IMG/VR virus record: IMGVR_UViG_2721755663_000005 | Reading direction: 5' to 3' (one strand) | Source: a virus | Taxonomy: Duplodnaviria > Heunggongvirae > Uroviricota > Caudoviricetes | DNA: 14,378 nt | Shown: piece after piece, positions 9,106 to 12,920 of the stretch | How positions within the stretch are numbered: the stretch's first letter is position 1 | How the letters are laid out: every line of letters starts with the position of its first letter | Translations under genes and position numbers: made by a program | Notes under the pieces: generated by a model | The model's database searches: none | Told to the model about the DNA's origin: nothing | Seen by the model: the letters and a program-made list of their open reading frames with translations, nothing else

Positions 9106-10941
9106 TTACCTGCCAAAGCGCGTATAGCCAACATCATGGCTGACATCAAAACCGCTGGATCGCGTTTCCATAACCCGCATACCCGGAGGCGAATTCACAA
9201 AAGAGACCTTGATCTCACCATCAACTTTTGGCGCAGAAGCTTTGTTAATCATGAAGGGATTCGGGCCTGTGGCACCGGAGGCGTTGTTTGACTGAGCCGG
9301 ATCTACCGCCTGATAAGGTGTGTATCCCCGTGCCGGTATTCCCGTCCCATAAGCATCATAAGCACCCGCGCCCCACTGCGCAGAGTTAATGGCATCGACC
9401 GTGTCACCGGAACTGTCGGTAAACCACTCAATAATTGGCTTCAGTTTGTCCCACATATCCTGAAACCACTTAACAACCGGTCCCCAGTTATTGATTACCA
9501 TCCCCAGCGGCGACCAGGCAAAAACCATCTTCAGAAGTTCCCAGCCAGCCTCAAAATAAGGACCAATGGTTTCCCAGAGCTTCTTGAAATAAGGTCCGAC
9601 AACATCCCAGTTAGTGATAATTAATCCCGCAGCCAGGGCTATCGCCGTCGCAATCATTCCAATCGGCGTCATCGACATGATCCTGCTGACAATACTGATG
9701 GCACCGCCAACGCCCATCAATCCCAGTTTCAGAATCGCAAGACCGGCAGCAAGCCCGACGACGCCGCGAATAACCCGGGGATTTTCATCCGCAAACTTCG
9801 TGAATTTTTCCCCTAACTCCCCCAGCCATTGCGTGATATTTTTGGCGTCACCAGAAAATGCGCCGCCAATAGCCGCAAGGCCGTTAGTTGCGGTCCCCGT
9901 CATTGCCTCCCACAGGTTGGACAGCGTACCAAGCTGGGCCTGAACACGTTTATTCAGGCTGGCCTGTTTATTCATCTTCTGCTGGATCTGATCGTAGCCA
10001 TCCTTTCCTTTATCGATTAGTGCATTGACCACCTGAAGGGTTTCGGCATCATCACCAAATATTGCCTTAAGTACACCTGTTCGCTTAACGTCGGTCAGTT
10101 TTCGCAGCTTTGCCAGTTGCCTGAACATGTTATCAAGACCGCCAAAACTTCCTTTGCCGTCAGTAAAATCGAGCTGTACCCCGAGTTTCTGGCGGGCCAT
10201 GATTTTATTGACGTCCCTGATTTTCTTAACGCTTAATCCGGACTGGATAACTTTTCGCAGGGCGTTACCTGCCGACTCCCCGTTCATCCCCATCTGATCC
10301 ATCATGACGCTGATGGGGGCAAGGCTCTGTGCAGCCTGAAGACCGTCCTTGTTCACCATCTTCAGAACAGAGCTGGTTTTAGTGAAGAAGGACAACATGT
10401 TGGTATCGTCAACACCCAGATAAAACGCCTTCTGGATAGTGTCGAACAGCCCCATCATGTCTTCTGACGCCGTTCCGGTAGCATCCTGCATCTTTGCAGC
10501 AAACTCAGCAGCCGCTTCCGGTGTTTTTTTCAGTTGTACCGCAAGATAAGCTGTCGCTTTACCCACACCACCCAGAATGTTTTCTGCCGGGATCCCCTGA
10601 CGCACCAGCATCTGCATCATGTTCTGGAAATCAGCCGTTGTACCGGGTAGCTGGTTACCCAGGCCAATAGCCAGTTTATTGATGTCCTGAAAGCTCTTTC
10701 CAACCTCGCCGTTCGCATCCATCATGGCGACTTTCAGCCCGGTGGCGGCGTTTTCCTGATCGGCATAAGATTTCAGGGAAAGCGTCAGACCCGCTGCCAG
10801 TCCGCCACCAAGCGCCAGCCCACCCTGTGACGCTTCTTCCGCCTGGCGTTTAAATCCCCGGATTTTCTTTTGCATTTTCGACAGCGCGGGAGAAAGCCTG
10901 TCGACACCGGTGATCAACGCCTTAAGCTCAAATTCAGCCAT
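9106..10941 (-). CDS. Tail tape measure protein
   Basis: 611-aa ORF with Ala/Gly-rich helical N-terminal region and hydrophobic C-terminal segments typical of tape measure proteins. Positioned immediately upstream of N as in Mu (gp42); AGGAGA ribosome-binding site upstream of the ATG. Confidence 0.75.
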   Translation of the reverse strand: MAEFELKALITGVDRLSPALSKMQKKIRGFKRQAEEASQGGLALGGGLAAGLTLSLKSYADQENAATGLKVAMMDANGEVGKSFQDINKLAIGLGNQLPGTTADFQNMMQMLVRQGIPAENILGGVGKATAYLAVQLKKTPEAAAEFAAKMQDATGTASEDMMGLFDTIQKAFYLGVDDTNMLSFFTKTSSVLKMVNKDGLQAAQSLAPISVMMDQMGMNGESAGNALRKVIQSGLSVKKIRDVNKIMARQKLGVQLDFTDGKGSFGGLDNMFRQLAKLRKLTDVKRTGVLKAIFGDDAETLQVVNALIDKGKDGYDQIQQKMNKQASLNKRVQAQLGTLSNLWEAMTGTATNGLAAIGGAFSGDAKNITQWLGELGEKFTKFADENPRVIRGVVGLAAGLAILKLGLMGVGGAISIVSRIMSMTPIGMIATAIALAAGLIITNWDVVGPYFKKLWETIGPYFEAGWELLKMVFAWSPLGMVINNWGPVVKWFQDMWDKLKPIIEWFTDSSGDTVDAINSAQWGAGAYDAYGTGIPARGYTPYQAVDPAQSNNASGATGPNPFMINKASAPKVDGEIKVSFVNSPPGMRVMETRSSGFDVSHDVGYTRFGR

Positions 10942-11116
10942 GTGTGCGTTTCTCCTGCTCTATCCTGTTTGCCTGACTGACCAGTAAGGGAATTTCACTG
11001 ATCGGCATATTCAGCAATTCGAAAGGATTAATGCGCCAGTAGCTGGCGCAGTCAAAGAAGCGATCAGTGAGGTATTCAGCCGTCAGGCCTGGAGGAAAAA
11101 ACCAGCCACAAGCCAC
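10934..11116 (-). pseudogene. 5'-truncated phage gene fragment, possibly tail assembly chaperone (Mu gp41 position), cut by the IS911-like element
   Basis: Open frame runs to the very edge of the IS at 11116 with no credible native start; the ORF track opens it on GTG. 8-nt overlap with the tape-measure start. Confidence 0.4.
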
Positions 11117-11188
11117 TGAAGTGGTTTACTGAATTTGGCCACCTGAACAGAGGTGATATGCTCACCTCAGAACAACACAGGTGCCATA

Positions 11189-11493
11189 ATGAAAAAAAGA
11201 AATTTCAGCGCAGAGTTTAAACGCGAATCCGCTCAACTGGTCGTTGACCAGAATTACACCGTGGCAGATGCAGCCAGCGCTATGGATGTCGGCCTTTCCA
11301 CAATGACGCGATGGGTGAAACAATTACGTGATGAGCGGCAGGGAAAAACAACCAAAAGCCCTCCCCCATTACCCCGGAACAAATTGAAATCCGTGAGCTC
11401 AGGAAAAAGCTACAACGTATTGAAATGGAAAATGAAATATTAAAAAAGGCTACCGCGCTCTTGATGTCAGACTCCCTGAACAGTTCTCGATAA
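11189..11493 (+). pseudogene. IS911-like orfA with internal frameshift
   Basis: The N-terminal frame (MKKRNFS...RDERQGKT) and the C-terminal leucine-zipper segment ([41 protein letters not shown], stop at 11491..11493) lie in different frames; the shift falls in 11350..11383. Confidence 0.75.
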
Positions 11494-12338
11494 TCGGGAA
11501 ACTCAGGGCGCGTTATCCTGTGGCCACTCTCTGCCATGTGTTCGGGGTCCATCGCAGCAGCTACAAATACTGGAAAAACCGTCCTGAAAAGCCAGACGGC
11601 AGACGGGCTGTATTACGCAGCCAGGTACTTGAACTGCATGGCATCAGCCACGGCTCTGCCGGAGCAAGAAGCATCGCCACAATGGCAACCCAGAGAGGCT
11701 ACCAGATGGGGCGCTGGCTTGCTGGCAGACTCATGAAAGAGCTGGGGCTGGTCAGCTGTCAGCAGCCGACTTACCGGTATAAACGTGGTGGTCATGAACA
11801 TGTTGCTATCCCTAACTACCTTGAACGGCAGTTCGCCGTGACCGAGCCAAATCAGGTGTGGTGCGGTGATGTGACCTATATCTGGACGGGTAAGCGCTGG
11901 GCGTACCTCGCCGTTGTTCTCGACCTGTTCGCAAGAAAACCAGTGGGCTGGGCCATGTCGTTCTCGCCGGACAGCAGGCTTACCATGAAAGCACTGGAAA
12001 TGGCATGGGAAACCCGTGGTAAGCCCGTCGGGGTGATGTTCCACAGCGATCAAGGCAGTCATTATACGAGCAGGAGTTCCGGCAGTTACTGTGGAGATAC
12101 CGGATCAGGCAGAGTATGAGTCGGCGTGGAAACTGCTGGGATAACAGCCCAATGGAGCGCTTCTTCAGGAGTCTGAAGAACGAATGGGTGGCCGGCGACG
12201 GGCTATGTAAGCTTCAGCGATGCAGCTCACGCAATAACGGACTATATCGTTGGATATTACAGCGCACTAAGACCGCACGAATATAATGGTGGGTTACCAC
12301 CAAACGAATCGGAAAATCGATACTGGAAAAAACTCTAA
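11442..12338 (+). pseudogene. IS911-like orfB (DDE transposase), disrupted
   Basis: Slippery heptamer A AAA AAG is intact at 11442..11448. The orfB frame terminates at 12117..12119; the conserved ...[18 protein letters not shown]... segment (from 12134) is in another frame, and the frame returns to the original register before the final stop at 12336..12338, implying two compensating indels. Confidence 0.7.
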
Positions 12339-12368
12339 CTCGGTGGCCAGTTTTTGTTGACCACTTCA

Positions 12369-12920
12369 GTTGTTGAATTTGCACTTGCAACAGGCTTAAG
12401 ACGCTCGAACATCATCAACCTTGAATGGCAACAAATAGACATGCAGCGCCGGGTGGCATGGATAAACCCGGAAGAGAGTAAATCAAACCGCGCAATTGGC
12501 GTTGCGCTGAATGATACTGCATGTCGCGTATTGAAAAAACAAATCGGGAATCATCACCGTTGGGTATTTGTGTACAAGGAAAGCTGTACCAAACCAGACG
12601 GAACGAAAGCGCCAACAGTCAGGAAGATGCGGTATGACGCAAACACAGCCTGGAAAGCGGCGCTGAGACGGGCTGGTATTGATGATTTCAGATTTCACGA
12701 CTTGAGACACACCTGGGCAAGTTGGCTGGTTCAAGCCGGAGTCCCGTTGTCAGTGTTACAGGAAATGGGAGGCTGGGAGTCTATCGAAATGGTTCGTCGA
12801 TATGCTCACCTTGCACCTAATCACCTTACCGAACACGCACGGCAAATAGACTCGATCCTAAACCCATCGGTCCCAAATTTGTCCCAGTCAAAAAATAAGG
12901 AAGGCACTAATGATGTGTAA
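12369..12920 (+). pseudogene. Tyrosine recombinase (phage integrase), C-terminal catalytic-domain fragment, 5'-truncated by the IS911-like element
   Basis: Catalytic signature present: [15 protein letters not shown] (box I Arg), HDLRHTWAS (His-x-x-Arg), MVRRYAHL (Tyr). Only about 183 integrase-derived codons remain; the first five codons of the ORF-track ORF come from the IS terminus. The gene ends 14 bp from the tRNA 3' end and reads toward it. Confidence 0.8.

Follow-up and report, generated by a model that had tools for sequence, protein, structure and literature searches.

The window considered here, a 14,378-nucleotide stretch catalogued as IMG/VR virus record IMGVR_UViG_2721755663_000005 (Caudoviricetes), matches, at 100% identity, the chromosome of Escherichia coli D9 (NZ_CP010152.1), a strain isolated from a dog. 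In RefSeq, the D9 tail module runs through genes for tail fibre assembly, YmfQ, baseplate J, gp46, V, a baseplate hub split by an IS66-family element, a DNA circularization protein and the tape measure. Beyond the tape measure follow a 'frameshifted' IS3-like ISEc52-family transposase, a 'site-specific integrase, missing N-terminus', tRNA-Thr and proA. The subject of this analysis is the insertion sequence (IS) that joins the tail module to the truncated integrase, a junction that a first-pass annotation of the DNA had taken for a probable IS-mediated deletion. Across a collection of 5,426 complete E. coli genomes, only D9 and strain D4, likewise a dog strain, showed at least 80% cover of the 2.6 kb around the junction. 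A literature search on strain D9 (accession CP010152) returned unrelated papers only. The features of the junction, and of comparable loci in other strains, are collected in Table 1.

Table 1. Features at the D9 junction and ISEc52 copies at integrase genes of other strains. Positions refer to the window unless a locus label is given (L001, D9; L002, NCTC9967; L005, LD22-1; L006, 22184; L008, E03).
Feature	Position	Strand	Basis or remarks
ISEc52/IS911-type IS (IS3 family), 1252 bp	11117..12368	+	Left inverted repeat (IRL) starts at 11117; right inverted repeat (IRR) 12333..12368; orfA start 11190; A AAA AAG motif at ~11442
Tail assembly chaperone, 3' remnant (P2 E/E' or Mu gp41 type)	10934..11116	-	Mapping to LD22-1 gene; frame and slip-site analysis
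Prophage tyrosine integrase, C-terminal 183 codons	12369..12920	+	Translation; Pfam Phage_integrase 28-171/172; alignment to intact integrases
att core	12917..12980		Within thrW feature 12917..13010 (-); second copy at L001 4130-4193, outside the window
thrW, tRNA-Thr(CGT)	12935..13010	-	ARAGORN; proA beyond
Tape measure gene (611 aa), the nearest complete gene on the left of the junction	9106..10941	-	Open reading frame list; D9 RefSeq annotation; 98-98.5% DNA identity to SfI, SfII and SfV
IS66-family ISEc22 (tnpA, tnpB, transposase), splits baseplate hub (Mu P-like) gene	4830-7284		Duplications 4822-4829 and 7285-7292
NCTC9967 IS	L002 12002-13251		Meets the integrase at the equivalent of window 12755; 165 bp of int left; same arrangement in LD93-1
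ISEc52 in the E03 prophage at tRNA-Leu (leuZ phage)	L008 6010-7259		Simple insertion in an unrelated integrase gene
ISEc52 in strain 22184	L006 9415-10664		Simple insertion in a third, unrelated integrase gene

The IS at the junction reads from TGAAGTGG... on the left to ...CCACTTCA on the right, and its ends form 36-bp imperfect inverted repeats bounded by 5'-TG...CA-3'; a repeat search of the window placed imperfect terminal inverted repeats at 11115-11143 and 12342-12370. The IRR agrees at 36 of 36 positions with the oligonucleotide published for the IS911 IRR, and primer O5 of IS911 has a match of 25 of 25 positions in the window at 12319 (both in PMC2909936, Table 1). Canonical ISEc52 copies on plasmids, 1250 bp long, are 99.7% identical to the window copy, which RefSeq names 'IS3-like element ISEc52 family transposase, frameshifted'. 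In a canonical copy, a 100-residue OrfA with an HTH_Tnp_1 domain is accompanied by OrfB in the -1 frame with an rve domain (Pfam). The earlier description of the element as IS911-like, made without database searches, is borne out by these comparisons, including that of its end with the published IS911 repeat.

IS911 and ISEc52 are IS3-family elements that transpose by copy-out-paste-in and generate a 3-bp target-site duplication. The window copy differs from them in having none: its flanks read ...AAGCCAC-IS-GTTGTTGAA..., with CAC on the left against GTT on the right. When the boundary was moved out by 2 nt per side, to the limits given by the repeat finder, GCC faced TGT, again without duplication, and shifting the ends revealed no alternative boundary that would yield one; the first-pass observation of unequal flanking triplets therefore stands. 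Simple insertions of ISEc52 carry duplications of AAC/AAC in strain 22184 and CTC/CTC in strain E03, each splitting one gene, and in these two controls a 3-bp duplication is the rule for simple insertion. Its absence in the window thus marks a secondary rearrangement and is no argument against membership of the IS911/ISEc52 group. An unrelated deletion followed by insertion of the IS was considered and ruled out, because it would have left a duplication and because both breakpoints meet the IS termini to the base.

The flanks of the IS are best understood by comparison with strain LD22-1, which carries a complete SfV-like prophage in the same slot, between a LysR (yagP-like) fragment and thrW-proA, in the same orientation. 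In LD22-1, the gene upstream of the tape measure encodes an 89-residue 'phage tail assembly protein' (L005 1126..1395), which matches Pfam Phage_TAC_7 ('chaperone proteins E, or 41 or 14') with E=2.4e-15. The IS breakpoint falls 34 nt within the 3' end of this gene, so that its 5' ~236 nt are lost. What is left in D9 comprises the last ~11 codons of the E-like open reading frame (ORF; stop codon at 11085..11083), a -1 slip site, T TTT TTC, on the minus strand at 11101..11095, and the whole of the -1 extension, which runs to 10936..10934. The first-pass annotation had recognised here a gene fragment lacking its 5' part. Both the ORF and its assignment to the chaperone gene are upheld; judged by its frame and slip site, however, the 60-residue ORF is the -1 frameshift extension (E'-like) and not the main frame of the chaperone. 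The slip site and the full frameshift extension have outlasted the chaperone body beside the IS, in a stretch that is without RefSeq annotation.

On the right, the IS abuts an integrase stub that retains the motifs ATGLR, HDLRH and RRYAHL and most of the catalytic domain. The stub is 99.3% identical to the integrase of LD22-1 and 99.9% identical to that of strain 160-11H1, and the intact homologues in both strains are annotated at 372 residues, in agreement with the earlier reading that the N-terminal half of the integrase is missing. The LD22-1 integrase is annotated from a TTG codon (L005 25060-25105); if translation began at the in-frame ATG that lies 45 nt further upstream (MSLFRRGEIWYASFT...), the protein would have 387 residues, and the annotated start is probably too short. 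Depending on whether the annotated start or the upstream ATG is used, the part lost in D9 amounts to the N-terminal 189 or ~204 residues, together with the start codon and promoter.

Within the IRR, a TTG codon at 12354 shares the reading frame of the integrase stub and has GGTGG 6 nt upstream. In principle, read-through from the IS could yield a 188-residue integrase consisting of the catalytic domain only, which is a weaker side reading of the locus. A consensus scan for an IS-borne outward promoter found no sigma-70-like site in 10800-13100.

The two flanks are collinear with the LD22-1 prophage. Up to position 11116 the window matches L005 as far as 1159, with 99.7% identity; from 12369 onwards it matches L005 from 25672, with 99.3% identity. 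Both alignments are on the plus strand, placing the two junction flanks in the same orientation 24.5 kb apart in LD22-1. The corresponding LD22-1 prophage DNA is NZ_CP047876.1 3700159-3724670. On the tail and head side, the intervening DNA encodes the chaperone 5' part, tube, sheath, tail terminator, head-tail connectors, capsid, protease, portal and terminase; the remainder holds lysis, antiterminator, replication and immunity genes, an xis-like gene and the integrase N-terminus. The regulatory, replication, lysis and head modules, which the first-pass annotation had expected to separate an integrase from tail genes, thus all lie within the LD22-1 interval. Correspondingly, comparison with this related strain and its intact thrW prophage supports the proposed loss of everything between the integrase and the gene upstream of the tape measure.

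Inversion had been named as the alternative to deletion. If the locus arose by inversion or translocation, the integrase N-terminus and the chaperone 5' part would survive elsewhere in D9 beside another IS copy; an absent duplication is also expected from IS-mediated inversion, and the ~16 ISEc52-type copies in D9 could have served as partners. However, inversion would leave two IS copies around an inverted interior, whereas the window has a single IS between flanks of native order and orientation, and the outer chromosome flanks, on the LysR-fragment/att side and on the thrW-proA side, are both native too. For these reasons, the alignments identify the junction as a deletion and not an inversion. 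The missing gene halves were also sought elsewhere. When 1241 nt (chaperone 5'/tube/sheath) and 772 nt (xis/integrase N-terminus) were added to a D9-specific anchor query, the number of matching places in the chromosome records remained 17 in D9 and 20 in D4 for these 2.0 kb beside the breakpoints. Similarly, a composite query that joined the integrase N-terminus to the left end of the IS, and the right end of the IS to the chaperone 5' part, found no reciprocal junction of either kind in D9 or in the other genomes of the collection. The best cover, 51%, represents the IS ends alone, and the best place in D9, at this same coverage, is the gspL locus. Survival of the missing DNA in an inverted or translocated form is accordingly very improbable.

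Scarcely more probable is an assembly artefact, in which two IS copies around an intact interior were collapsed by the assembler. The consensus quality of the IS does look poor. The D9 copy departs from the canonical element by four 1-nt indels, near 11351, 11359, 12074 and 12190, which break orfA and orfB as assembled and leave the A AAA AAG motif intact; the D4 copy shares none of these four and has two of its own, at the equivalents of 11409 and 12367, the second within the terminal CA. Because D9 and D4 carry these different frameshifts on flanks that are identical across 2.6 kb, the indels probably represent consensus errors in a multicopy repeat and not true decay. The possibility that the IS is an old, decayed copy, suggested by the frameshifts, was rejected as unproven on the same grounds, and pseudogene calls in the D9 and D4 genomes should be read cautiously. 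Against a collapsed repeat, the same junction occurs in two independent complete assemblies (4.64 and 4.82 Mb), a 1.25-kb repeat is readily spanned by long reads, and 24.5 kb would need to have disappeared from both assemblies.

In all likelihood, therefore, the junction is the scar of an IS-associated deletion in an SfV/SfI/SfII-like thrW prophage of the common ancestor of D9 and D4. Measured on the LD22-1 prophage, ~24.5 kb would have been lost, from the chaperone 5' part through the first ~190-205 codons of int, and a single ISEc52/IS911-type copy would have been left at the joint with one breakpoint against each of its termini. The comparisons show the identity of the IS, its absent duplication and the 24.5-kb collinear gap, and the searches described above found neither the missing DNA nor a reciprocal junction; the order of events and the recombination route may be inferred as follows. 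Two directly repeated IS copies would first have inserted, one in int with a GTT duplication and one in the chaperone gene with a CAC duplication. Homologous recombination between the two copies would then have excised the interval together with one copy, so that CAC and GTT remained at the joint. This two-copy route is modestly favoured over an event involving one copy. The ~16 ISEc52-type copies in D9, compared with a median of 3 matching places per genome having any, favour recombination between IS copies, although they could equally have supplied transposase in trans for a single-copy route.

The single-copy route, which is entertained as a lesser but substantial possibility, invokes a transposase-dependent intramolecular deletion. 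The IS would have inserted first in either int or the chaperone gene and then attacked a site 24.5 kb away in cis, leaving one old and one new flank; it might have acted through an active inverted repeat-inverted repeat (IR-IR) junction, carried by an IS circle or by a tandem dimer, or else by way of a 'sloppy' first strand transfer, perhaps assisted by IEE. This route accounts for deletion endpoints lying exactly at the IS termini, yet recombination between two copies predicts exact endpoints at both termini equally. Support by analogy comes from IS30, another copy-out-paste-in element, whose deletions begin at the IR edge via reactive IR-IR junctions (PMC9333248), and from IS3-family elements, in which IEE stimulates the 'sloppy' transfer and, acting with the transposase, makes the deletions adjacent to the IS more extensive (bioRxiv 10.1101/2023.06.07.543989). 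Adjacent deletions of this kind, by IS30 through IR-IR junctions and by IS629 with IEE, likewise have endpoints at the IS termini and no duplication, and the D9 evidence does not separate such a route from two-copy recombination. The absence of a two-copy intermediate among the 5,426 genomes might also favour a single-copy event, but the single-insertion intermediate that this would require is likewise absent from them.

Several points weigh against the deletion as reconstructed here, or limit what it implies. No genome of the collection has a single ISEc52 insertion at either breakpoint, with nothing above 51% coverage, which leaves the two-copy intermediate hypothetical. The search for the missing DNA was indirect, as it counted matching places, used the chromosome record only and covered 2.0 kb beside the breakpoints. 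Furthermore, the ancestor may have differed from LD22-1: the integrase stub is nearer to the 160-11H1 prophage than to LD22-1, and the distal cargo of the D9 remnant has its match in a prophage that strain S3 carries at a different site. Tandem lysogeny at thrW is also on record (PMC3306764). As the family is mosaic and the ancestor uncertain, the figure of 24.5 kb is valid only if that ancestor resembled LD22-1; with a tandem ancestor, the loss would have been larger.

The same IS is found beside the thrW integrase in two further strains. In NCTC9967 and LD93-1 it again lacks a duplication (GGC versus GTT) and abuts a shorter integrase stub. To the left of the NCTC9967 copy lie a transposase fragment and a gtrA/gtrB-type (yfdG/yfdH) cluster with a third gene; only such distal cargo is kept in the two strains. 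The alignments indicate that IS-associated erosion recurs at thrW, once in D9/D4 and once in NCTC9967/LD93-1. The right flanks of the IS in D9 and NCTC9967 both start with GTT. The NCTC9967 copy meets the same integrase 386 bp deeper, at GTTACAGG instead of GTTGTTGAA, which resembles the nested, IS-anchored deletions expected of a single-copy event. D9 and NCTC9967 are not close, however: identity between their flanks is 99.3%, several positions differ between their IS copies, and the two junctions are more likely to be independent.

Two additional ISEc52 copies, those in E03 and 22184, also interrupt integrase genes. The E03 insertion lies ~6 codons away from where the D9 break would fall in the homologous sequence, with TGAAGTG, the first 7 nt of the IS end, just upstream of it; this may reflect an IR-like choice of target or coincidence. 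Because ISEc52 occurs at different positions of the thrW integrase in D9/D4 and NCTC9967/LD93-1, as well as in the E03 and 22184 integrases, ISEc52/IS911 might be thought to prefer the integrase stretch just upstream of the catalytic ...TGLR motif. Such a preference would provide a recurrent, semi-directed route to prophage immobilisation, followed by IS-anchored nested deletions that spare the cargo. This idea is considered unlikely.

The D9 prophage itself is of the SfI/SfII/SfV type. Its tail module is 98.0-98.5% identical over 3832 nt to those of the Shigella phages SfI, SfII and SfV, and the SfV-like type combines a Mu-like contractile tail, an HK97-type head and lambdoid early genes. According to PMC3306764, SfI/SfII/SfV-type phages insert at thrW, on the downstream side of proA, and carry int at one end of the prophage and the genes for O-antigen modification at the other. 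D9 retains the hallmarks of a prophage integrated at the 3' end of thrW, namely tRNA-Thr(CGT), a copy of the att core at each end and a tyrosine integrase stub adjoining thrW. The att repeat spans 64 bp at 95% identity, its distal copy (L001 4130-4193) lying beside the LysR (yagP-like) fragment, and the remnant, ~18 kb long, still has both att sites at its ends.

In D9 the distal cargo genes encode a NeuD-family acetyltransferase, a MaoC dehydratase and hypothetical proteins, and the gtrA-gtrB-gtr(type) cluster for O-antigen glucosylation is not there. The distal end as a whole (L001 4749-9501 and window 1-1277) is unlike that of LD22-1, with a NeuD/PglB/VioB-family acetyltransferase, MaoC and a different tail fibre and assembly cassette. 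This block may be surface-polysaccharide-modifying cargo carried in place of gtrABC. The same distal block is present in a prophage remnant of strain S3 at prfC-yjjG, where the tail fibre region is fused beside a terminase gene. A closer ancestor was sought through the distal cargo (L001 4194-10900), but, D9 and D4 aside, the best matches either lie at different sites or belong to prophages that are remnants too. The dog isolate CUVET16-321 was likewise tried as a better reference than LD22-1; its tail is 99.8% identical, but its phage resides at yjjG-prfC and has a different integrase. As CUVET16-321 and S3 show, the SfV-like prophage family is mosaic.

Given its gene content, the D9 remnant is incapable of excision, of particle formation and of tailocin function, because the integrase N-terminus, the xis-like gene, the tube, the sheath and all head genes are missing and the hub gene is split by ISEc22. 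The earlier characterisation of the locus as an immobile tail-module remnant is therefore sustained. The thrW island of D9 is a decaying prophage remnant in which the distal cargo genes are still carried, and in D9 and D4 alike it should be annotated as a non-inducible SfV-like phage remnant.

In Shigella, gene loss from prophages has been driven by IS elements. The nearest comparison is with the cryptic thrW prophages of S. flexneri (SfI/SfII/SfV/SfX), which share with D9 the attachment site, the placement of int beside thrW, cargo at the far end and 98-98.5% tail identity. PMC5596473 describes S. flexneri cryptic prophages in which structural and replication genes were lost and a remnant was left, a pattern common to those prophages and D9. 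The D9 remnant differs in its host, a canine E. coli, in having cargo other than gtrABC and in the survival of part of its tail module.

The junction represents ordinary prophage decay of an already known kind, since the IS and the phage family are known and the rearrangement is a textbook one; its significance is small beyond annotation. It adds one more case of IS expansion eroding a prophage, given the number of copies in D9, and offers a worked example of how deletion can be told from inversion when a relative has an intact prophage in that att site. As a lineage marker, the junction could also identify the D9/D4 clone.

A second IS within the tail module provides a counterpart to the ISEc52 copy. 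The IS66-family element ISEc22 is flanked by a perfect 8-bp target duplication, GATCAGGC, and is thus a simple insertion, in contrast to the ISEc52 copy at the junction. Its transposase is annotated as frameshifted in D9 and intact in D4.

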